A stretch of DNA of 13,295 bases, taken from UHGV virus genome UHGV-0220852; one strand, written 5' to 3'. The position numbers and the translations under genes were made by a program. The DNA is from a virus. The notes beneath the pieces were generated by a model. The model ran no database searches, was not told where the DNA came from, and was given only the letters and a program-made list of their open reading frames with translations. Shown piece after piece: positions 2,876 to 13,295 of this stretch; the first letter of the stretch is position 1; each line of letters opens with the position of its first letter.

Positions 2876-4399
2876 ATGAAACGTGTCATTTCATACATTC
2901 GTTTCTCATCAGAGAAGCAAGCTAAAGGCGACTCACTCCGCAGACAATCTAAGATGGTCACTGATTGGCTTAAGGCTCATCCTGAGTACTACCTTGACCA
3001 AGATTTATCCTTCCGTGATTTGGGGGTGAGTGGGTTCACTGGTAAGCACTTGAAAGGTGGCTTAGGTGACTTCTTAACCGCTATCGAGAAAGGGCTTGTT
3101 AAAGCTGGTGATACATTATTAATCGAGAGTTTAGACCGTTTGTCACGTCAGGCCGTAGACCGAGCAAGTGAGCTATTACGAAACATTCTTCGCTCTGGTG
3201 TAGATGTAGTCACCCTGTCCGATGGTGAACATTACACAAGTGAGTCTCTTAAAGACCCGTTAGCTCTGATTAAAAGCATTTTGATAATGCAGCGGTCGCA
3301 TGAAGAGAGTTTGAGGAAGTCTGAGCGTATACAAGCTGCATGGGATGCAAAGAAAGAAGCTGCTAAAGCTGGTATCAAGATTTCTAAGCGTTGTCCTGCA
3401 TGGCTTAAGCTTAATGATGACCGTAAGACCTTCTCTGTGATACCTGATAAAGTGGAGACTGTGAAGAGGTGCTTTCAGCTACGGTTAGAGGGTAAGTCTA
3501 TCTGGGAGATTGTCAGAACTCTTAATGCTGAAGGTCACCGGTCGATGAACCAATACAAGCCGGGTAAGTTTGGTCAAACATCTGTTCAAGACCTTTTGAA
3601 GAATCGCTCTGTAATTGGATACTTTACCCCGAAAGGCTGTGAAGAGATTGCAGGTTATTACCCGTCTGTAATTGATGAGACAACATTCTACAAAGTCCAG
3701 CAACTATCACATTCTCGTCACGGTCGAAAACCTGTTTCAGATAAACCATTGAGTGTGAATCTCTTTAAAGGGGTTATCCGTTGTTCTGAATGTGGTCATG
3801 CTTTGATTATCACAGGCTTTAGCGATACAAGAAACGGGATTTATCGTTGTCCTCTTCGTAATGAAAACCGTTGTAGTGCTAAAGGGCTGTCACGTAAGCA
3901 AACCGATGGTACATTGCTTACCCTGCTATCTCGTCTTGACCGATTTGATAGCGATATGACGAATACCATAGACACACTGAAGCTACACCGTGAACACATC
4001 TCAAGCAATATTGAGAAGCTGGTACAGCTATCACTTGAAATTGAAGACCTGAACGCTATTACCAACAAGCTAAAACAACTAAAGAATGAGTTATCACAGG
4101 TTGATGCTGATATCGAGAAGGAGACACAGCGGCTTAAGTCTATCGATACAGGCTCTTTGTCCGATTGTGACTTGAGTACAAAGGCGGGAAGGATTGAAGC
4201 ACAACTGATAATCAAAAGTGCTGTTAAAGAGGTCGTTTTAAATACTGCTAAACGTCGCTGTAAAGTGACTTTTCACAACGGTAAGTCAATCACCTTACCA
4301 ATAACAGAAAACCCCTCAGAGGACGTTACAGAGGCTATACAGTCGCTTTCTGAAGTCACTGAGAGGGGTTTAATAGACGTTGATGTAGTAGAGATTTAG
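2876..4399 (+). CDS. Large serine recombinase (phage/ICE-type integrase)
   Basis: 507-aa ORF: N-terminal resolvase-type catalytic domain (YIRFSSEKQ with serine nucleophile, ...[12 protein letters not shown]...), recombinase domain, Cys-rich zinc ribbon (CSECGH...YRCP...C) and C-terminal coiled coil; strong RBS. Confidence 0.9.
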
Positions 4400-5169
4400 T
4401 ATCTTTTGTTAGGATTCACACTAAACTTCTTCAAAGTACTACCTGTACCAGCATTATTAAGCACCTTTGAAGCTTGCTCATTAGCGGCATCTGAGAAGGT
4501 GCTTTTTCCATTCTTAATTTTGACACTTCTACCACAATTGATACGGGCTTGAAGTTGCTCATTAGTGAGTTCACTCGTAGAGCGATTATATAGCTCCTGA
4601 CACATCAACATACCGTTACCTAAACTTGTTGTGGTGTTTCCAGTATTCTTTTTAGAAGTTGCTCCACCATCATTCGTGGTAGCGGTCTTGCCAGTAGCAG
4701 ATGAAATATCAGTTTGCCCTACGATTGAACGAAATTCTACACCTTGGAAGGTCATCTGAATACGAAGACCATTAGCAATGGTATGCTCTTTACTCGCTTT
4801 AAACTGAGTAATGATACTATCAGTGATAGATATTCCATCTTTACAAACAATAGTGATGATTTGCTTCTGGTCTCGCCATTGTTCAACCGTAGAAATAAAG
4901 GTTTCTACAAGTTGCCCCTGTCTGGTTAATAGAACTGAACCCGTCGAATCAACCACTACAACACCGCTAATAGAGATGGTCTTAGGTGCTCTCTGAACAT
5001 TATCAGTTATAGTTTGCCCCGATTGCATAGCCTGAGTTGTCACCATCATCGGTGAGTCATAGTCCATCTGTTCAGTAGCTGTTAAGGCAAGAAAAGATTC
5101 TACATTATCTCTAAGGTGAAAATAGATACCATCTTTACCTGAGTATCTAATTTGCTTTGTGTCAAACAT
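4396..5169 (-). CDS. Hypothetical protein (257 aa); possibly tail-associated (sits immediately downstream of the tape-measure-like gene)
   Basis: Long ORF converging on the recombinase gene with a 4-bp stop overlap; Thr/Ser/Gly-rich mid-section; no motif I can name. Confidence 0.55.
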
Positions 5170-5253
5170 TGTTGTTATTCCTATTCTGTTAAGCGTGAGC
5201 TACGTGAAATCTAATTTTTGATGTTGGTATCTGTTCAGAAGAAATCACGTAGC

Positions 5254-5317
5254 ATTCGACTATTCATAGTTGAATCGTCATACTAGATAAAGATTAATAG
5301 ATTGCCATGTGTGGCAA
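5254..5317. promoter_or_regulatory. Two palindromic operator-like sites in the 174-bp gap upstream of the 257-aa gene
   Basis: ATTCGACTAT-tc-ATAGTTGAAT (5254-5275, 10-2-10 with one mismatch) and TTGCCA-tgtg-TGGCAA (5302-5317, perfect 6-4-6). Confidence 0.3.
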
Positions 5318-5342
5318 TAAATATTAGTAGTTCTAACATTGT

Positions 5343-7418
5343 TTATTCCTCTGGGTAAGCTGAGCTAATCAAGGTATCTTCCTGCATACGATTAATATGA
5401 GATGTGGTTCTTTCATCAATAACCTTTCCATCAAGTACCGTCTGAGTTGTGATATTGATTGTCTGAGGCTGAATGTTTACTGACGGCTTGATAACCTTTA
5501 AATCTTGTGTGAATGTTTCCACTCGACCTTTCAGATTATTTAATGCTTCAGGTGAAAACTGTGGAACATCCTTTGATTTGCCCTGAACCATAGCCCATAA
5601 AACAGCAGCTAAAGAGTTCATGTCACCAGTCAATGCTTGGTCTGTGGGTTCCACCTTTGACCTTACAACTTTGTCAATTGGATTATCTGACTTACTCATC
5701 TGACGTTCATAGAACGGTTTAACAATGGAGTTAATCACATCAGTTGCCATACCGACAATCATTACTTTGGTAATTGCATCAGCTACAGATAATTTTCCTT
5801 TACCACCTTCAATACTACCGGAACGTGAATTAATTCTTCCTGCTGCTGTATTTGCTACATTTCCAAGCGTGGAAATAGCCCTAATTAAGCTCCAGATGCC
5901 ACCTACAGCACCAATACCAGACCTTACAGCAACAATACCAGCAAGTCCCTTTAATGCACTTAACAGGCCATTTGCGATACCATCAGCTACAGCTTTTTGA
6001 GTGTCATTTAATTCTCTGTAAGCAAGGGTCACTCTGTCAAAGAATCCCTGCACTCGGTAGCTAATCGTGGTTAAATCATCAATACCGTTTGACATACTTT
6101 TCATCAAGTCGCCAAAATGTTCACCAAGATTTTTTGATTGCCCACCTAGCGAATTAAGTAAATTAGTCAGTGACCTTGTAAAGTCTGTTAAACCTTCCTG
6201 TGAACCGTCGAACATTAAGGCCAGATTATTATTCCATGAATTAGAAAGGCGGCCTAACTGCGTCTGAGTAGAGTTAATAATCTTTTCCCATCCACCAGCT
6301 TTATCAATCATCCTTCCCATTTCAGCGGATACTTTAGGAAGAACATCTTTAGAAAGAACTTTACCGTCTTTCATAGCCTTGTCTAATTCTTCTGTAGTCA
6401 TCCCAAGGCTTCTGGCAAATAACTGGAAAGCACCTGCCATTCTGTCACCTAATTGACCACGTAGCTCTTCAGCCTGAATCTTCCCTTTAGAAGCCATCTG
6501 CTCGAAAGCTTTCAGAATCCCGTTAATTTCATCAGTACTTAAACCCATTAATCTGGATGTGCCAATCACATTAGAAAATAGGGATTCTTTCTGGTCTGTA
6601 TTCATATCACCAGCACCAGCGGAAAACTTAGCAAAACTGCTTAATGTTTCAATCTGGTCTACACCTGTATTATTAGCAAGATTCTTAACGAAGTCTGTAG
6701 CTCGTTTAGCGCCTTCATCGCCTAATACAAATTGTGCCGCTCGTTGTGATGCTTCTTTTTTCAGGCCAATCTCCATAACCTTCTTGTAAGCTTCTAAGGC
6801 TGTCTGAAAACTATAAATGGCTGTACCTGCTTTGATTGCACTTGTAGCTAATACATCCAGACCATTCGAGGCATATTCACTGTGATTATTTTTGCTGGTG
6901 GTCTTATTAAACTTAGAAAGTGTTTCACGTAGATTTTGATTTAATTTTGCTAACTCACGATTAAAAGCTTCGTTTCCAAGTGTCTTGGATTTGCTGCTTA
7001 AGCTGTAATACTGACTCTTAAAATACTTCTCAAGCATAGGATTAAAGTCACGAAGCTTGCTCATATCCACGCTATGTGCTGCTGTGATTGCTCTGTTGCC
7101 GCTAATTCGTGGCTGTCTTGGCTGTCTAAGTGGCTTTAAAGTATCCTCAATTTCCGTTTTAATCTTAAACGCTCTAGTGTTTTTAAGACGCTGCTCAATC
7201 TTGTCAAAGGTCTTATTAAACTTCCTTTCAAGTTGCCCTAAAGAACTTGTCAGATTGCTGTCAAGTTGCTTGGTATCGACCTTAAACGCTCTATTCAAAT
7301 TACGTTCAATTCTTTGTGCTGACTGCAAAGCTGCCTTTTCAACTCTTTGCAAGCCCTTAATAACGTTTTCATTGAAGCCTAGCTCAACGATAAAACTATC
7401 AACTGTGAATTTGCTCAT
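5343..7418 (-). CDS. Tape-measure-like protein (phage tail length tape measure / minor tail family)
   Basis: 691-aa ORF: coiled-coil-like N-terminus, central segment ...GLSTDEINGILKAFEQMASKGKIQAEELRGQLGDRMAGAFQLFARSLGMTTEELDKAMKDGKVLSKDVLPKV... resembling the conserved TMP core, and Gly-rich hydrophobic stretches near the C-terminus. Assignment is by motif memory, not a search. Confidence 0.6.
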   Translation of the reverse strand: MSKFTVDSFIVELGFNENVIKGLQRVEKAALQSAQRIERNLNRAFKVDTKQLDSNLTSSLGQLERKFNKTFDKIEQRLKNTRAFKIKTEIEDTLKPLRQPRQPRISGNRAITAAHSVDMSKLRDFNPMLEKYFKSQYYSLSSKSKTLGNEAFNRELAKLNQNLRETLSKFNKTTSKNNHSEYASNGLDVLATSAIKAGTAIYSFQTALEAYKKVMEIGLKKEASQRAAQFVLGDEGAKRATDFVKNLANNTGVDQIETLSSFAKFSAGAGDMNTDQKESLFSNVIGTSRLMGLSTDEINGILKAFEQMASKGKIQAEELRGQLGDRMAGAFQLFARSLGMTTEELDKAMKDGKVLSKDVLPKVSAEMGRMIDKAGGWEKIINSTQTQLGRLSNSWNNNLALMFDGSQEGLTDFTRSLTNLLNSLGGQSKNLGEHFGDLMKSMSNGIDDLTTISYRVQGFFDRVTLAYRELNDTQKAVADGIANGLLSALKGLAGIVAVRSGIGAVGGIWSLIRAISTLGNVANTAAGRINSRSGSIEGGKGKLSVADAITKVMIVGMATDVINSIVKPFYERQMSKSDNPIDKVVRSKVEPTDQALTGDMNSLAAVLWAMVQGKSKDVPQFSPEALNNLKGRVETFTQDLKVIKPSVNIQPQTINITTQTVLDGKVIDERTTSHINRMQEDTLISSAYPEE

Positions 7419-7520
7419 TGTTCATGTTTCACCTCTTTAAGTGTTCATATACAAAAAAGGGAGAGCTACCGATGTCACTCGATAATCTCTCCCGTTGATT
7501 TTTACCCAACCAATTCTTTT

Positions 7521-7739
7521 TTAATGTCTGACAAGATAATATAATTCCGTTTCACCTATGATTTGGGCATCAGAAGGGATACGGTCGATACACCACTTTG
7601 GAATCTTGCGTGTTTTTGGTTTGTGTGAGGTGATAACTTGACGTTGATTTCCAATTCGTAGCTTTGGTTTGTTGGGTTGTTCTTTCAATCGTTCACTAAT
7701 TGCTTTAATAAGCTCATAGCGTTCTGTTAAATCAATCAT
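7521..7739 (-). CDS. Hypothetical basic protein (72 aa)
   Basis: ORF with AGGTG RBS 4 nt upstream; Lys/Arg-rich; same operon as the TMP-like gene. Confidence 0.5.
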   Translation of the reverse strand: MIDLTERYELIKAISERLKEQPNKPKLRIGNQRQVITSHKPKTRKIPKWCIDRIPSDAQIIGETELYYLVRH

Positions 7740-7762
7740 TCACCACCTCACATTAGTTTCAA

Positions 7763-8179
7763 TTAGAAGTCCAGCAATTCCTCTATTAAGTAGCCTTTTC
7801 CAGCTAAATCCCGATACCGCTTATCTAATTCTGCCTGATAAGAATCGAGATTTTTTAGATAGTCATCTTTAAATTCAGCAAGTAACTCTTCATTAGTTTT
7901 ACTGGTAAAGTCCCTGATGTAACTCCCACCAATCGCTACGCTAATAGTTCTTGTTCCATCATCAAAGTCTATCATTTCAGTAATTTCTGGTGGATTATAA
8001 CTATCTCTTAATCGCTCAATATCCCGATTAACATCCCTAATCAGGAAAGTTAAGTCATCTCGACCATCAAATTTTAAATCTTCCAGAGACTCACCTTCGT
8101 AAATACGTTCACGAAGATATCCGGTAATCTCATCGATAGCATCAAACTTCTTTCTAAGAATATAAAAAATAGGACTCAT
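7763..8179 (-). CDS. Hypothetical acidic protein (138 aa)
   Basis: ORF with GAGGTG RBS that overlaps the stop of the upstream 236-aa gene; Asp/Glu-rich. Confidence 0.55.
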   Translation of the reverse strand: MSPIFYILRKKFDAIDEITGYLRERIYEGESLEDLKFDGRDDLTFLIRDVNRDIERLRDSYNPPEITEMIDFDDGTRTISVAIGGSYIRDFTSKTNEELLAEFKDDYLKNLDSYQAELDKRYRDLAGKGYLIEELLDF

Positions 8180-8187
8180 TCATCACC

Positions 8188-8898
8188 TCAAAGTGCTTTG
8201 CTATATTTCTGAGAAATCTTCGTAAGCTGCTCAATATCAGCCTGCATAGCAACCTTCTTAGCATCTTCATATTCTTTCACAAGCTCTTTCATAGCCTGAA
8301 GCTCTCTTGAGAGATACAACTTAGCACTATCAAGCTGCTTGTTACGTGATGCCAAGATGTTCTGTTTAGCAAGTTCACAGAGTTCTTCATCGCTCTTATT
8401 GGTCATGTAAATAAACTGACCAGCACCTCTTGATGCCTTAACCATCTTCACAATTCGATATCCAGCAGGAAGACTACTAATCACGGCTGCGACGTTTTCT
8501 TGAAAAGTACCAAAACCATCATTATCTTCGTATTGGTAATAGACAAATGGTTTCTGTGACAATTCATCCTGAATCTCAAATTCTGATGGCTCAATAGCTG
8601 ATTGCATCAGGGTAACTTTACTGTAAGCATCATCTAGTTTAATACGCTGTGCTTTTAGCAGTGGGTAATATTCACGCTCAAGATTAAATAGTGCTTCAGT
8701 TTTACCAATATCGGGCATCTCTTGAGACTCAGGCGTCACAAAGATGATTTCCTTTGGTGACATCTTTAACTCTTGCTCAAGTGCAATTCTTTCATCGTGT
8801 TCTTTGCGCTGGATAGTGATAGCTGGATGTTCAGTCTGTGGCGACCAGTCACCGAAACTATCAATCACTTTGTTATTAATGTAAATATCGTTTGTCAT
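8188..8898 (-). CDS. Hypothetical protein (236 aa), first gene after the long leader
   Basis: ORF with AAGGGGA RBS; C-terminal region looks coiled-coil; no recognisable motif. Confidence 0.6.
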   Translation of the reverse strand: MTNDIYINNKVIDSFGDWSPQTEHPAITIQRKEHDERIALEQELKMSPKEIIFVTPESQEMPDIGKTEALFNLEREYYPLLKAQRIKLDDAYSKVTLMQSAIEPSEFEIQDELSQKPFVYYQYEDNDGFGTFQENVAAVISSLPAGYRIVKMVKASRGAGQFIYMTNKSDEELCELAKQNILASRNKQLDSAKLYLSRELQAMKELVKEYEDAKKVAMQADIEQLTKISQKYSKAL

Positions 8899-9008
8899 TG
8901 TTTTCCCCTTCTAAGATATTCAGTTTTTAAAAAGCACACCTGACAGCCTACGAACTTAGAAGAGGCTTAAAAGGCGGTTTGCCAAGTATGCTTTTTAAAA
9001 GCTGAAAA

Positions 9009-9040
9009 AGCCCTAGATAACTAAAACGCTATAAAGGGCT
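9009..9040 (-). terminator. Candidate intrinsic terminator/attenuator hairpin inside the leader
   Basis: AGCCCT (9009-9014) pairs with AGGGCT (9035-9040) around a 20-nt loop; on the minus strand the hairpin is followed by TTTTTCAGCTTTT. The long loop makes it weak. Confidence 0.3.
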
Positions 9041-9228
9041 AAGGTGAAGAAATTAAAAAAAATATCTAAAGGATTCAATAACGAATGATTAAGCACTTTT
9101 CGAGATGACCTCTCAGGTTGTATAAGAGGCCATGTAGCGAAAAGCATTGCACCTTTCAGAATAACTATCCCTAGATGTAGATGGAATTGTTGAAAGAAAT
9201 AAGAGAGAATTACTCTCCCATAATTAAA

Positions 9229-9257
9229 ATTATGTCATGCTTAAGGTTATTTGTCAA
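9229..9257 (-). promoter_or_regulatory. Sigma70-type promoter reading leftward (TTGACA-17-CATAAT)
   Basis: Consensus -35 (9257-9252) and CATAAT -10 (9234-9229) with 17-bp spacer on the minus strand, ~320 nt upstream of the 236-aa gene start. Confidence 0.5.
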
Positions 9258-9281
9258 CAGCTTTTTAACAGATTGGTAACA

Positions 9282-9359
9282 TCAATTCTTATTTACTGTG
9301 TTACCCATCCAGCAACCAACAAATAGCCCTAAAGCCGTCCAGAGAATAACGAGCATCAT
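9282..9359 (-). CDS. Candidate 25-aa hydrophobic peptide (MMLVILWTALGLFVGCWMGNTVNKN)
   Basis: Start overlaps the stop of the upstream 102-aa gene (ATGA), suggesting translational coupling; too small for the ORF track. Unproven. Confidence 0.3.
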   Translation of the reverse strand: MMLVILWTALGLFVGCWMGNTVNKN

Positions 9360-9664
9360 TGCATCACCTCACTGTAAGGGTTTAATTCATTCTGATAGGT
9401 CAAGAATACATTCAGCTTCAATAATTGCTCCGGGCTTAAATCAAGTCGGTTGCATTCGCTTGTGATAAATCTCTTGTAGTCTGGGTCTGTTACTTCCAGT
9501 TTGTGAACAAAGTCACCAAGTTTAATTTCGTTGATTATATGCTTGTCAATATACGTTGATGCTTCAAAACAATGCATGAAATAGATATTAAAGCCTGACC
9601 TGTTCAGGTCATTAAGCCAATTCATAGTTTCTTGGTCAACCATAACTTGCATTGAATAATTCAT
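9356..9664 (-). CDS. Hypothetical protein (102 aa)
   Basis: The ORF table extends it to 9697 from a TTG; the ATG at 9664 has an AAGGAG RBS 9 nt upstream and avoids overlap with the structured element, so the shorter form is preferred. Confidence 0.6.
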   Translation of the reverse strand: MNYSMQVMVDQETMNWLNDLNRSGFNIYFMHCFEASTYIDKHIINEIKLGDFVHKLEVTDPDYKRFITSECNRLDLSPEQLLKLNVFLTYQNELNPYSEVMQ

Positions 9665-9684
9665 TTTTAAAATCTCCTTTTTAC

Positions 9685-9806
9685 CAGACCTCCTCAATCG
9701 CTCTGTAACGAGCCAAACAGTCTTTTTCAGGGGTAGCCTGTACAGTGGTATTACCCACCCTAAAATAAGGTAGTTTTTTGCGTTAGAATGCGATTGAGAG
9801 CGTCTG
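9685..9806 (+). repeat. Structured repeat element, copy A (candidate ncRNA/regulatory element)
   Basis: Shares conserved 5' and 3' blocks with copy B; CTCAATCGC (9693-9701) pairs with GCGATTGAG (9790-9798), plus outer CAGAC/GTCTG; G-U wobble implies the + strand folds. Confidence 0.5.
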
Positions 9807-9819
9807 AGAAGCTGTTTTT

Positions 9820-10107
9820 CTAATTTCTCTTAAAGCCTCGGACTTGCATAAGATTTTTTGGTCTGGTATCGGCTCTGTTACCATTTCGATGGATAATTTG
9901 CTTGTTGGATTGATAGCCATGATAAAGAAACCAGACAACATATTTCACGTAGAAAGTATATCGGCCTATATTAAATGTTTTGTTGCCGTAGTCGTCGGTA
10001 ATTATCGTGACTGACTCTCCATCAGACCAGTACAGGGAATCACTGGATTCATCATAGATAAGGTGTTCTGTAAAATATCGTCTAACATCTTCATGCCAAG
10101 GTTTCAT
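9820..10107 (-). CDS. Small HNH endonuclease (HNH_3-like)
   Basis: 95-aa ORF ...YTFYVKYVVWFLYHGYQSNKQIIHRNGNRADTRPKNL... fits the small HNH family; GAGGAGG RBS; start overlaps upstream stop (ATGA). Confidence 0.65.
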   Translation of the reverse strand: MKPWHEDVRRYFTEHLIYDESSDSLYWSDGESVTIITDDYGNKTFNIGRYTFYVKYVVWFLYHGYQSNKQIIHRNGNRADTRPKNLMQVRGFKRN

Positions 10108-10319
10108 AAAACCTCCTCACCCCAATAACCTAATTCAATCTTGTGACGCTCAAACCATTCTGGCCTGACTGCTGTTTTCAGTACTTCATTTGGGCCAATG
10201 GCTTTAATGAAAATATCTTTTGAGTTATGGATGTCACCGAATCCGTTTCCTTTAATCAGGAGGTCGGAGATGTAGCGAATCATTTTATCCGTGTGGTATT
10301 CAAAGGTAACGCATAGCAT
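10104..10319 (-). CDS. Hypothetical protein (71 aa)
   Basis: ORF coupled to both neighbours (TAATG overlap upstream, ATGA overlap downstream). Confidence 0.5.
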   Translation of the reverse strand: MLCVTFEYHTDKMIRYISDLLIKGNGFGDIHNSKDIFIKAIGPNEVLKTAVRPEWFERHKIELGYWGEEVL

Positions 10320-10597
10320 TAAACCCCCATTGCTAACTTGTGAATCTTAATACTCAATAGTCGGGCGATATCAATTTTAAAGTTGTTTAGTCCCTTCAAA
10401 GTATCTAAAGCGTCCTGAGTAATTCGGATGTGTTTACGACCTTTAGAAACTGGATATTTAAGTAAATCCGACTCAGTGACCTCTTTAGCAATTGCAAGCT
10501 GCATAACAGTCTGATGAGGCAAGTTAGTAGCTCGTTTAATTCTGGTAAGCTCGTTAAAAGCTTCCTCTGAAATACGGGTTAATGTGTGTTTATTCAT
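10319..10597 (-). CDS. Putative ribbon-helix-helix (CopG/Arc-like) DNA-binding protein (92 aa)
   Basis: Start moved from 10699 to the ATG at 10597 (GAGGA RBS; TAAAATG junction with upstream gene). N-terminus HTLTRISEEAFNELTRIKRATNLPHQTVMQLAIAK has the strand-helix-turn-helix pattern of RHH repressors; a second RHH-like stretch (KHIRITQDALDTLKGL...IDIARLL) may follow. Confidence 0.5.
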   Translation of the reverse strand: MNKHTLTRISEEAFNELTRIKRATNLPHQTVMQLAIAKEVTESDLLKYPVSKGRKHIRITQDALDTLKGLNNFKIDIARLLSIKIHKLAMGV

Positions 10598-10598
10598 T

Positions 10599-11030
10599 TT
10601 AAAATTCCTCCAAAATATACGGGTCAAACTCAAAGTCTGGTTGCTCGTTTTCCATTGGCTCAATATTACCAACGGCCATATGATGCTCAACAACACCAAT
10701 TAACTTTGCGCACATTACAGCAAGCAAAGCGCAATATTTATCGCTTGGTAATTCATGGCTAAGTCTGGTTGCTTGACGCTGAAGATGATTTGTCACGTTG
10801 GCTGCGTTAATTTCATCAAGATTCTTTAGAATATAAAATAGCTTTCTGTTGTATTTTGGGTGACCTTCACTTCTACAGAATCCGATAATTACTTCGTCAA
10901 TGCCTTTGCGTTCTGCTCTGGTGAACTTGGGTACTTCGTGGCTGGTGGGGGTGTCTGTGTAAGCGTAGGAGTTGTATCTGTTACGTTGTCTCGATGCCTG
11001 AAGCATCGCTCTAAATTCTCTGTCGTTCAT
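10599..11030 (-). CDS. Hypothetical protein (143 aa), first gene of the leftward coupled operon
   Basis: ORF directly downstream of the leftward promoter; acidic C-terminus; no recognisable motif. Confidence 0.6.
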   Translation of the reverse strand: MNDREFRAMLQASRQRNRYNSYAYTDTPTSHEVPKFTRAERKGIDEVIIGFCRSEGHPKYNRKLFYILKNLDEINAANVTNHLQRQATRLSHELPSDKYCALLAVMCAKLIGVVEHHMAVGNIEPMENEQPDFEFDPYILEEF

Positions 11031-11079
11031 TCATAAGCCAGTCCTTATAATTGTTAATTCTCTGTTAACCATATATACA

Positions 11080-11108
11080 ATACTAGCATTTTCAAAGACT
11101 AATGTCAA
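11080..11108 (-). promoter_or_regulatory. Sigma70-type promoter reading leftward (TTGACA-17-TAGTAT)
   Basis: -35 at 11108-11103 and -10 at 11085-11080 on the minus strand, ~50 nt upstream of the 143-aa gene. Confidence 0.5.
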
Positions 11109-11114
11109 GTATTT

Positions 11115-11144
11115 TTAACATTTTATTAACATCTATGGTATAAT
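11115..11144 (+). promoter_or_regulatory. Sigma70-type promoter reading rightward with extended -10 (TTAACA-18-TGgTATAAT)
   Basis: -35 at 11115-11120, TG at 11136-11137, TATAAT at 11139-11144; sits back-to-back with the leftward promoter, -35 elements 6 bp apart. Confidence 0.55.
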
Positions 11145-11214
11145 GGTTCTATGAGAGAGGGAAAAATAGAAAAGGCGTGGCTATGAGAATGGTCACATGG
11201 TATTGCATTGCACA

Positions 11215-11313
11215 CAGACCTCTTCAATCGCCCTGTAACGAGTTAAATGGCCTCTTCAGGTCAACTCATAAGGTCAGATACTTTTTGTGTCAGGATGCGA
11301 TTGAGAGCGTCTT
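11215..11313 (+). repeat. Structured repeat element, copy B, in the 5' leader of the rightward transcript
   Basis: Same conserved ends as copy A; TTCAATCGC (11223-11231) pairs with GCGATTGAG (11297-11305), including a T-G wobble; begins ~65 nt after the predicted start site and ends 13 nt before the start codon of the small ORF. Confidence 0.5.
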
Positions 11314-11326
11314 ACAAGGAAATTTA

Positions 11327-11515
11327 ATGGTAAATCTCCCTCCTGAACTGGGGTCACCTGATGTATGGGCTGGTGGAGGTGTTGGGCTGATTGCAGGCTT
11401 ACTACTTCGCTATTTCATCGTCAGGGTGTTTATCGTGTTTCGGTTGTTTGGTCGTGAATGGTCGTTTGACCTCAAGGACAGGACCAGAACAGACAACCAC
11501 ACAGAACCCCGTTAA
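11327..11515 (+). CDS. Candidate small single-pass membrane protein (62 aa)
   Basis: ATG with AAGGA RBS 6 nt upstream; MVNLPPELGSPDVWAGGGVGLIAGLLLRYFIVRVFIVFRLFGREWSFDLKDRTRTDNHTEPR has one hydrophobic helix and a charged tail. The ORF table's 112-aa version starts inside element B and is probably over-extended. Confidence 0.45.
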   Translation: MVNLPPELGSPDVWAGGGVGLIAGLLLRYFIVRVFIVFRLFGREWSFDLKDRTRTDNHTEPR

Positions 11516-11629
11516 ACTCCCTTCAAAACCCCCTGTACGTGATGGTATAGGGGTATCTTTAGCATTTTGTGCTATCTATTAAAAAATAGCTTGACAGAAC
11601 CGGAAAGCTGTATCTATCAAGCATTCACC

Positions 11630-11806
11630 TCTCTGACAGTAACCTCTAAAAGTTCTTATTTTTCAATAAATTGTAATTAGCCATATATAGAGAACTGACA
11701 AGTCTCTTCACAATTAACTCTGTAACCTTAACAGTGATTTCTAAAAATACTTATTTTTCAATAAGTTGTAATTAGCCAATATAAAGGACTGACAAGACCC
11801 TCCACA
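11630..11806. repeat. Tandem direct repeat, two copies, ~95-bp period
   Basis: Copy 1 ~11630-11711 and copy 2 ~11725-11806 share a near-identical core CTTATTTTTCAATAA[A/G]TTGTAATTAGCCA and ACTGACAAG; no ORF. Confidence 0.7.
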
Positions 11807-11835
11807 GAGAACTTCCTGGACTCACTAAGATACAA

Positions 11836-11861
11836 GGCGATAACCCCAGAAAGGGAGAGCC
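11836..11861. repeat. Two-tier GC hairpin, copy 1 of a hairpin repeat (copy 2 at 12049-12082); possible terminator
   Basis: GGC-gataa-CCC-cagaaa-GGG-aga-GCC; shares the core TAACCCCAGA[A/C]AGGG with copy 2, while the outer stem differs in sequence but still pairs. Confidence 0.3.
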
Positions 11862-12048
11862 ACCTTCTAATTGGTATTGTTATGAGGATGCTTCATCCGA
11901 ATCATCTACCAATCCCTAAACCGACTTCTTAAACAATCTTTACAGACCCCGTTCACCAGTCTCAATATTTTATTTCTCGCTCTTCGTTTGTTGCTCGTTT
12001 CTATTATTGAGGGGGTTTGAAAAACCTCTGTAAAATAACCCTTCCAGT

Positions 12049-12082
12049 AAAAAGCGAATAACCCCAGACAGGGGAAATCGCC
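12049..12082 (-). terminator. Candidate intrinsic terminator downstream of the methyltransferase gene
   Basis: On the minus strand: GCGA/TCGC outer stem, CCCC/GGGG inner stem, then TTTTT (A5 at 12049-12053 on +); lies 40 nt after the methyltransferase stop. Confidence 0.45.
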
Positions 12083-12121
12083 TCTTTAACATTCTCATAA
12101 TCAGTACTCTATATGAGAATC

Positions 12122-12790
12122 TTAGCCCAACCTTTGAACAATCCTGTAAGTGGTGCTTAGAGGCATTCTTAGCGATTCTGCGATGCTCTTGATGGATTGC
12201 CCTTGGTCATACATTTTAATCAACCTGTCAAGCGTCTGTGCATCGTGTATATGAGGTCTTCCACGTAAACCACCCCTGTTAACCACGGCAAGTAAAAGCA
12301 TTGTGTCACCACAATAGATTGTCTGGGTAACTTCAACTTTCGGTTTGCGGGGTGTGTTCCTGTATATCAAAACGCAACTTGGAAACGGTGAACGCGCTGC
12401 AACACCTTTCTTCCCTGCTGGTGGAAGGTATTTGACTGCTCGGTGTAACGTTCGAATCTCATGCAGAAAGGGGTTTGTATATACACATCGAAGCCAGTAA
12501 GTTGTCTTTGACCTGTGCGGAACCAGACATACACACACATCAGCTTCAGGGGCTTTTGAGAGGAACCGTTCAGCCATGCTAAACGGCGGGTTACAGAAGA
12601 CCCGTTCACCAACCCATGATTGACGGCTTATATCATCGGTGAACCGTGGCAACAATGCGTCATGCTCAGTTGCAGCACCATCCATTGAGAAACTAAATTC
12701 TCGGTGTAGGTTACGAAATAAACGATACGGTGTACGCCAGTCATCAGAACCACCATGATAACGACCGACATTGATTATTGGATGTGACAC
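12122..12790 (-). CDS. Phage-type DNA N6-adenine methyltransferase (Dam family) with C-terminal resolvase-type HTH extension
   Basis: 222-aa ORF (GTG start): ...SDDWRTPYRLF...MDGAATEHDA...WVGERVFCNPPFS...VCLVPHRSKTTYW... matches the small phage Dam family; the last ~50 residues GRPHIHDAQTLDRLIKMYDQGQSIKSIAESLRMPLSTTYRIV resemble the HTH of Hin/resolvase-type recombinases. Confidence 0.8.
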   Translation of the reverse strand: MSHPIINVGRYHGGSDDWRTPYRLFRNLHREFSFSMDGAATEHDALLPRFTDDISRQSWVGERVFCNPPFSMAERFLSKAPEADVCVCLVPHRSKTTYWLRCVYTNPFLHEIRTLHRAVKYLPPAGKKGVAARSPFPSCVLIYRNTPRKPKVEVTQTIYCGDTMLLLAVVNRGGLRGRPHIHDAQTLDRLIKMYDQGQSIKSIAESLRMPLSTTYRIVQRLG

Positions 12791-13295
12791 AAGCGAAGCG
12801 CCCTCTTAGTATATTTCTTAATCATCTCTTTAGCATTTAGTGCTTTTTGTTAAGTTTAGCACTTTTTGCTAAAGACAAAACACTTGACAAAATGGTAAGA
12901 TTGTTCACATAGCCCTTACTTAACAGACTTTTAAGAGACTTTGAAACGACCTACTTAACAAGGTCACTACCTCTGGTCTTATCACTCCCTCTTGGTAGTT
13001 CTGTTAATAATTTTTCAGTTCTCTCTTAAGACAACTGTTAAGACAGAACCTACCTTCGGTTTTCATGGTTCTCTTCCCCCGTTAAACAGTCCTTCCTAGC
13101 AACTTCATAGTTATCTGTCAAGTGCCTTTGAAGATTCTATCAAGACCTCTGAAGCTGACCTGATATAGATGCTGTGAAGGCATATTCTCTAGGTCTGTGT
13201 AGCTTACTTAGTGGGAAGAGAGGGATATAGTGACCATAGGGGAACCCCTCCTGTTAAAAAGACTACTTAGAAGTCTGAGACTTTAGTAAAATCTG

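Follow-up and report, generated by a model that had tools for sequence, protein, structure and literature searches.

A tandem ribbon-helix-helix protein and a minimal HNH_3-type nuclease in a variable operon of a phage-satellite-like island of Enterobacteriaceae

The virus genome UHGV-0220852 (13,295 nucleotides; the whole of this stretch is referred to as the window) carries at positions 9820-11030 four short minus-strand genes, here named A to D starting from the first gene of the operon. We favor the view that they represent an early regulatory or DNA-handling operon of a phage satellite resembling the PLEs of Vibrio, with accessory genes that are swapped between islands, and assign this reading a probability of about 0.55. 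What makes it of interest is chiefly the satellite family to which the operon belongs, which appears to be undescribed; considered apart from the island, the four genes make up a rather ordinary early operon of the phage type, the products of which have no recognizable relatives. A preliminary description of this DNA had considered two options, namely a toxin-antitoxin or small defense module, and a phage regulator cluster with a homing-type HNH gene; the second of these fits best.

In terms of its gene content the window looks like a phage-satellite-like island with a PLE-type architecture, whose helper, to judge from the tail genes and shared DNA, would be a FelixO1-type lytic phage. The island starts with a large serine recombinase (Table 1), after which the minus strand encodes a Dit-like baseplate protein, a 691-aa tape-measure protein with a TMP_3 domain and several small proteins, followed by the operon, a non-coding control region and a gene combining a Dam domain with a helix-turn-helix (HTH). 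No capsid, terminase or lysis genes were found in the island (2876-13295; content checked in FCI1, NCTC9082 and others). Lytic myoviruses of the Felixounavirus/SUSP type encode proteins with 72% identity to the Dit-like protein, which has matches in 299 phage records. Furthermore, a 51-nt non-coding hairpin-like stretch (window 11868-11918) is 100% identical to positions 311-361 of Felixounavirus NBEco004, which lie in a gene-free region of 1.1 kb with which that record begins; it is 83-94% identical in three related phages, and a copy is found near the right end of the island of strain FCI1 (L001 21075-21126). This stretch may serve phage and island alike as a packaging or regulatory signal or may, alternatively, be a small mobile element.

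The island of the window is integrated in yecE, whereas related islands occur between tonB and yciI or beside the rut genes, indicating at least 3 insertion sites; the related islands are about 11 kb long and at the tonB-yciI and rut sites end with a small serine recombinase. Of 5426 complete Escherichia coli genomes, 494 contain the island backbone (561 places in all, and as many as four copies in a single genome), and its architecture is conserved in Citrobacter, Escherichia albertii and Salmonella; some islands are disrupted by insertion sequence (IS) elements or reduced to recombinases. Our literature search found no paper describing this island or an enterobacterial counterpart of the PLE/ICP1 system.

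The list of open reading frames (ORFs) and the sequence itself confirm the operon as originally described, i.e. four ORFs with overlapping or nearly abutting stop/start junctions, which read TAA-A-ATG (A/B), TAATG (B/C) and ATGA (C/D). Shine-Dalgarno-like purine runs precede each start (AGGA, GAGGA, GGGGG and GGAGG, from A to D), and the tight gene packing is seen again in related islands. All four genes are under purifying selection, with ratios of nonsynonymous to synonymous substitution rates (dN/dS) of 0.11-0.34 wherever dS is unsaturated. The overlaps had also been taken as a sign of tight stoichiometric co-expression, but they are usual in phage-type operons and constitute no special evidence for it. 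A promoter scan recovered a sigma-70-like promoter for the operon back to back with a strong divergent promoter (Table 1), and this divergent promoter region is kept in the islands L001, L004, L009 and L011. Megablast searches with the region against phage genomes yielded no match.

Structure prediction identifies the product of gene B as a single-chain tandem ribbon-helix-helix (RHH) DNA-binding protein, in which one polypeptide would be the equivalent of an RHH dimer. Its AlphaFold2 model (pLDDT score 90.5) displays two strand-helix-helix units, spanning residues 4-36 and 54-91, such that the two RHH repeats account for the whole chain and leave no C-terminal toxin-binding tail. Foldseek searches against viral models recovered tandem-RHH proteins, and the best structural match of B overall is the relaxosome protein TraY; thus, the earlier suggestion of an RHH-like regulator, possibly a tandem one, is upheld by both methods. 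Profile searches against PDB sequences gave nothing credible for B. The family is narrow, with 94 clusters and named members nearly all from Enterobacteriaceae, and the uniform length of its members (92-93 aa) supports the start of the window gene. A scan of one genome per species recovered only 3 loci of B, in E. albertii and Citrobacter, and tblastn searches with B and C against phage genomes found no match. Every cassette variant examined contains B.

On modest evidence, we infer that B binds four TGTTAA-type heptamers flanking the divergent promoters. Two direct copies of TGTTAAY (11052-11069; 11 bp apart) are found a short way downstream of the operon -10 element, and two more in inverted orientation, TTTAACA and ATTAACA (11114-11131), overlap the -35 element and spacer of the divergent promoter. 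In L011 both right-hand heptamers read GTAACA, and in L004 the promoter-proximal one is GTAACA and the other AGCAA; both islands carry another B subtype, the heptamers thus changing along with it.

Gene A defines an all-alpha protein family with a normal length of 184 aa. It comprises 1108 homologue clusters, all source-named ones from Enterobacteriaceae, and only 21 relatives were found among 1.84 billion representative proteins. The 143-aa protein of the preliminary description does exist as an ORF, but this is not the normal length of the family: the window encodes a rare allele, represented by 4 member sequences on 3 contigs, from which 41 aa between DEVI and DDVII have been deleted in frame. 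In strain FCI1 the gene is frameshifted. The dN/dS values of A range from 0.18 to 0.34. Neither A nor its distant homologues contain a Pfam domain, and no Rep, primase or helicase signature was detected in A; profile searches against PDB sequences gave nothing credible, and the AlphaFold2 model of the full-length protein (built from 14 sequences) had a pLDDT of 49.5, which was too low for use in a fold search. A distant homologue (31% identical) occurs beside cutC, yecM and cmoAB in an unrelated metagenome-assembled genome, within a syntenic island with recombinase, tape-measure and Dam genes, and in strain TUM1881 (L005) the position of A is occupied by a protein with an HTH_36 domain. The one weak tblastn match among phages, in Aeromonas phage 85AhydR10PP, is uninformative, all genes of that phage being annotated as hypothetical.

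By family, the product of gene D is a predicted minimal HNH_3 (I-HmuI-type) nuclease devoid of a DNA-binding domain, in agreement with the small HNH nuclease proposed earlier. It matches Pfam HNH_3 (PF13392) with E = 2e-8 and 34.2 bits against a cut-off of 24.8, as well as PHROG HNH families. The motif H72-x11-N84 (HRNGNRADTRPKNL) retains the catalytic histidine and the metal-binding distal asparagine, while the middle Asn-Asn of the usual HNH_3 motif is replaced by Asp-Thr. No second domain was found in its 95 residues with Pfam or PHROG, and specifically no NUMOD, AP2, zinc finger or HTH. tblastn searches against phages recovered only distant HNH genes of marine phages. D is present at 235 places in 226 genomes, i.e. 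in about 42% of island copies (235/~561), all at 90% or higher nucleotide identity, whereas the Dit-like gene of the backbone is mostly 60-80% identical at its 561 places; in strain EC9, for instance, the cassette is 92% identical to that of the window and the Dit-like gene only 76%. D shows a dN/dS of 0.13 against L001 and is invariably associated with a single cassette version; alleles differing from that of the window solely by the absence of the HNH gene were not found. An HNH' paralogue in L022 and L007 (41% identical to D) has a phenylalanine at the position of the catalytic histidine, and the HNH-like protein of L005 has a leucine there. Two of the three HNH-like variants thus lack this residue, which argues that nuclease activity is not a conserved requirement.

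Gene C is an optional, movable accessory gene. Its homologues, which form 26 clusters and are confined to this island family, are found without an HNH gene (L020), after an HNH-like gene (L022) and after a further small gene, Y (L011, L007), and conservation of the first 12 residues among them supports the start of C. The protein has no Pfam, PHROG, PADLOC, NCBIfam or phage match; its matches in a profile search of PDB sequences were rejected as artefacts of designed repeat proteins.

Comparison of the genes that follow the promoter in related islands revealed B in all of them and A in nearly all; C, Y and the HNH-like genes form an exchangeable accessory set. The order is A-B-C-D in the window and FCI1, A-B-HNH'-C' in E110019 (L022), A-B-HNH'-Y-C in E. 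albertii (L007), A-B-C' in strain C4 (L020), A-B-Y-C in L011 and A-B-(Y+HTH) in NCTC9082, L009 and the Citrobacter island L008 and in L021; Y+HTH is what follows B in L004, L009, L008 and L021. In TUM1881 (L005) the HTH_36 protein is followed by a possible HNH-like gene, a B-like gene and Y. Among 465 E. coli genomes, Megablast breakpoints accumulate at window positions 9660/9661, 10546-10583, 10927 and 11235, the first of these coinciding with the left edge of a structured repeat, copy A.

The preliminary description had placed the cassette exactly between two copies of this structured repeat and proposed it to be a mobile or recombination-prone unit. The two copies, in direct orientation and about 1.53 kb apart, were indeed recovered (Table 1), and the clustered breakpoints together with the variable gene content are in line with a recombination-prone unit; however, the repeats are not consistent boundaries of it. 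Using a covariance model we found three positional types, A, B and C. In L009 and L011 repeat B is precisely absent, with the leader (...CACAG) joining the ribosome-binding site directly, although the A and B genes are present, and in L004 and L009 an unrelated hairpin occupies the position of repeat A. L004, L007, L019 and L021 have a type-C copy, in inverted orientation, close to the small recombinase. The related elements thus contradict the claim that the cassette is bounded by the repeats, and these same observations led us to reject the repeats as recombination sites flanking it. They were also rejected as a genome-wide miniature inverted-repeat transposable element: they occur at 529 places in 406 genomes, which amounts to about one per island, and otherwise only as a 38-nt plasmid match. 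This match, an 89.5% identity of the 3' arm (9772-9809) to 26 plasmid records, some of them from plasmids of about 5 kb, is borderline (E = 7e-4).

Repeat A has a minimum free energy of about -44 kcal/mol on either strand, and differences of -2.3 to +2.4 kcal/mol leave its strand undecided by folding energies. It is 92% conserved in L005, which has a different cassette and copy A only. In contrast, the plus strand of type-B repeats folds 5-12.6 kcal/mol better than its reverse complement in 5 of 6 copies. Type-C repeats keep the long stem by pairing of a different 5' segment, which argues that the hairpin is under selection. In the avian pathogenic E. coli E12049 (L019), the island consists of two recombinase genes only, with the type-C repeat between them. 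The ORF behind repeat B (11327-11515) encodes a 62-aa small membrane protein with one hydrophobic helix, and RefSeq relatives have it annotated; the plus-strand promoter drives this ORF, which is followed by a terminator-like site at 11530-11553 and has repeat B in its leader in some islands only. On the other side of the cassette, no terminator-like site was found in the interval between D and the next gene, the hairpin of repeat A there not being followed by a U-tract. Hence, the transcription unit is likely to comprise at least five genes, with the next gene probably co-transcribed with the operon. Its 102-aa product belongs to a family of 102-109 aa found in all islands examined, and shows 25-28% identity to the 107-108-aa homologues of L004, L009 and L011 and 82% to that of L020.

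These architectural features invite comparison with several characterized systems. The Vibrio PLEs possess a large serine recombinase, their own tape-measure protein, a tail assembly chaperone and a baseplate hub, which give rise to chimeric tails (PMC12987554, PMC9410903), and also carry the I-HmuI-like nickase NixI (PMC12987554, PMC9410903). The island shares with them the large serine recombinase at one end, a small size (about 11 kb against 17-18 kb), a preponderance of hypothetical proteins, module exchange between variants, tape-measure and baseplate proteins of its own with relatives in a lytic myovirus and a small I-HmuI-type HNH protein comparable to NixI. It differs in its host clade (Enterobacteriaceae) and its presumed helper (Felixounavirus); moreover, no search linked any of the four operon proteins to a PLE protein, and a core of a tandem RHH protein with protein A has no described PLE counterpart.

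With regard to B, the TraY protein of the F plasmid, DndE and AvtR of an archaeal virus are likewise single-chain tandem RHH proteins. Their identity to B is only 4-14%, and the matches, being structural and model-based, do not imply a common function; unlike the settings of TraY and DndE, the island lacks a relaxase, dnd genes and any context of conjugation. D belongs to the same Pfam family, HNH_3, as I-HmuI and NixI and keeps the His...Asn spacing, NixI being likewise encoded by a satellite. Unlike the characterized homing enzymes of the I-HmuI type, D is only 95 aa long, has no attached DNA-binding module and contains Asp-Thr for Asn-Asn. Nuclease genes are known to sit at exchange boundaries, and an HNH gene without a DNA-binding domain can be found beside a separate DNA-binding gene (PMC10055350). 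As with homing endonuclease genes, including the split pair gp115/gp116 of ICP1, D is situated at the edge of an exchanged module, by the 9660 breakpoint, and has a patchy distribution and much lower divergence than the backbone; unlike them, HNH-like genes occupy different positions in different cassettes. The operon also recalls type II toxin-antitoxin systems (ParD, CopG and MazE-like) in the translational coupling of an RHH binder to small genes, one of them a nuclease, but differs from them in lacking a fixed partner, an antitoxin tail, a known toxin family and a significant PADLOC match.

According to our preferred explanation, the four genes would be the promoter-proximal part of a leftward early operon in an ~11-kb integrative island built like a Vibrio PLE, with a FelixO1-type lytic myovirus as the likely helper. 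The conserved core of the operon would be the A+B pair. By acting on the heptamers, B could autoregulate the operon and control the rightward transcript; alternatively, it might bend DNA in the manner of TraY at a replication or processing site. A would probably be a DNA-binding regulator or initiator. The small genes behind B (C, Y and HNH-like) would be interchangeable accessories, represented in the window by C and D. D is most likely a free-standing nickase, either homing-type or helper-directed, that would need a partner for target choice, and its activity would explain the spread of this cassette version among divergent islands. A bolder formulation, which we hold to be quite doubtful, posits that the operon serves both control and interference, that A and the tandem RHH protein constitute a new two-protein helper-responsive DNA switch, that the HNH protein is a 'split' NixI-like nickase guided to helper or island DNA by the RHH protein or C, with a swappable specificity, and that the islands form an undescribed PLE-like satellite family parasitic on virulent FelixO1-type phages.

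Certain observations weigh against the preferred explanation. With 41 conserved residues lost from A of the window, this copy of the operon may be partly defective. A and C have no recognizable fold, the AlphaFold model of A being unusable. Given that two of three HNH-like variants lack the catalytic histidine, D could be decaying or domesticated, and its low divergence could stem from the spread of the whole cassette instead of homing by D. Finally, the candidate operator is made up of four short heptamers, and the heptamer is not enriched across the window (7 found against 5.4 expected).

If confirmed, the satellite context would mean that a satellite of strictly lytic FelixO1-type phages is common in E. 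coli (about 9% of complete genomes) and its relatives, whereas the satellite biology of strictly lytic phages has so far been worked out only for Vibrio PLEs and ICP1. FelixO1-type phages are used in typing and therapy. The operon would be the obvious starting point for asking how the satellite senses its helper and controls its own genes, and whether it attacks helper DNA. It would also offer a compact model in a tractable host, in which a one-chain RHH regulator stands beside a nuclease stripped to its catalytic core, with natural variants that have the nuclease moved, lost or inactivated.

Among the alternatives, it is possible, albeit unlikely, that the operon mediates interference with the helper: D would be a NixI-like nickase that cuts the helper genome and blocks its replication or packaging, B and/or C would supply the sequence recognition, and A and B would switch the module on at infection. 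NixI itself provides the precedent, as an I-HmuI-like HNH/N nickase of a satellite with a large serine recombinase; D falls with it in HNH_3 and, lacking a DNA-binding domain of its own, would need a partner, while the tail genes and the 51-nt DNA match point to a FelixO1-type helper. However, about 58% of island copies lack D, the HNH-like genes of L022, L007 and L005 have no catalytic histidine, and D has neither a close homologue in phages nor a known target site. Less likely again is a role in replication or DNA processing, with A as an initiator, B as a TraY-like origin bender, perhaps at the tandem repeats at 11636-11813, and D as a nicking enzyme that starts rolling-circle replication or processes concatemers for packaging, comparable to the HNH protein gp74 of HK97 that acts with terminase. 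TraY is the best structural match of B, and DndE binds nicked DNA; the HTH_36 protein in the position of A in L005 is also suggestive in this regard. HTH_36 proteins are often replication proteins. The tandem repeats, 0.6 kb away, are conserved in A-type islands (though not in L020) and absent from L005, which has no A, and PLE replicon modules are known to be swapped. Nevertheless, L005 lacks the entire right-hand region, and the co-occurrence of A and the repeats is therefore not independent evidence; A has none of the Rep, primase or helicase signatures, D is optional, and the island encodes no terminase that could serve as a partner.

The other option of the preliminary description, in which an RHH antitoxin (B, or C with a putative RHH-like N-terminus) would neutralize D as a nuclease toxin in a toxin-antitoxin or abortive infection system, now appears improbable. 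An RHH protein beside a small nuclease is a common pattern in such systems, the genes are tightly coupled, and upon inspection C shows an N-terminal strand-helix pattern followed by a 25-aa tail. Yet, Pfam, NCBIfam and PADLOC detected no toxin family among A-D, with A and C having no match, HNH_3 is no known type II toxin family, and a PADLOC scan returned no significant match, B giving only a weak one to PDC-S26 (E 0.021). B is RHH throughout, without a toxin-binding tail, and its partner is not fixed, being C, HNH', C', Y or Y+HTH across islands; likewise, C occurs without any HNH gene in L020 and L011, and the order B-HNH'-C' in L022 differs from B-C-D in the window. Most improbable of all is that the operon is what remains of a defective prophage, in decay and no longer functional. 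The 41-aa deletion in A of the window, the frameshift in FCI1 and the islands disrupted by IS elements or reduced to recombinases would be in keeping with decay, but they are opposed by the purifying selection on all four genes, the presence of the backbone in 494 of 5426 genomes, with several integration sites and up to four copies per genome, and the conserved architecture in Citrobacter, E. albertii and Salmonella.

Table 1. Coordinates of the operon genes, control elements and associated features (window positions unless an island is named)
Feature	Position	Strand	Remarks
Gene A	10599-11030	-	143 aa here; first operon gene; ORF
Gene B	10319-10597	-	92 aa; ATG start, MNKHT...; ORF
Gene C	10104-10319	-	71 aa; ORF
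Gene D	9820-10107	-	95 aa; ORF
Operon promoter, sigma-70-like	11108..11080	-	TTGACA-17-TAGTAT; promoter scan; 50 nt upstream of A
Divergent promoter, strong	11115-11144	+	TTAACA-18-TGnTATAAT; promoter scan; back to back with operon promoter
Candidate operator	11052-11131		TGTTAA-type heptamers; from sequence
Next gene	9356-9664	-	102 aa; ORF; AAGGAG ribosome-binding site
Large serine recombinase	2876-4399		507 aa; island start; homologue with Resolvase, Recombinase and Zn_ribbon_recom domains
Structured repeat, copy A	9682-9815		134 nt; long hairpin; between D stop codon and next gene
Structured repeat, copy B	11211-11322	+	112 nt; 5' leader of ORF 11327-11515, downstream of plus-strand promoter
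Type-C repeat, third inverted copy	L004 10653-10786; L007 166-299; L019 4001-4133; L021 3959-4092		

Beyond the operon, the tandem direct repeat at 11636-11813 consists of two copies of 94-95 nt that are 77-88% identical to each other; it is 80-93% conserved in the A-type islands checked except L020 and absent from L005, which lacks A, and represents a candidate origin (iterons) or tandem promoter. Scans of the whole window with Rfam (E <= 1) and for tRNA and tmRNA genes found nothing. On the minus strand at 9199-9257, upstream of the tail-gene block, there is a strong promoter-like sequence (TTGACA-17-TGnCATAAT) followed by a hairpin and a T-run; this 110-nt region is 78-94% conserved across all islands examined while the flanking genes differ greatly, which suggests a late promoter under antitermination control. 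The 236-aa protein encoded at 8188-8898 (minus strand) has homologues labeled as transposase in RefSeq, a label that Pfam, PHROG and NCBIfam do not support. The Dam-HTH gene (12122-12790, minus strand) encodes an N6-adenine methyltransferase of the Dam type fused to a resolvase-type HTH, and the distant syntenic island L015 likewise contains a homologous Dam gene. To the left of the island, positions 823-2823 contain an IS3-family orfA fragment, a tyrosine integrase and the 5' part of yecE (DUF72), which is truncated at the island insertion point.

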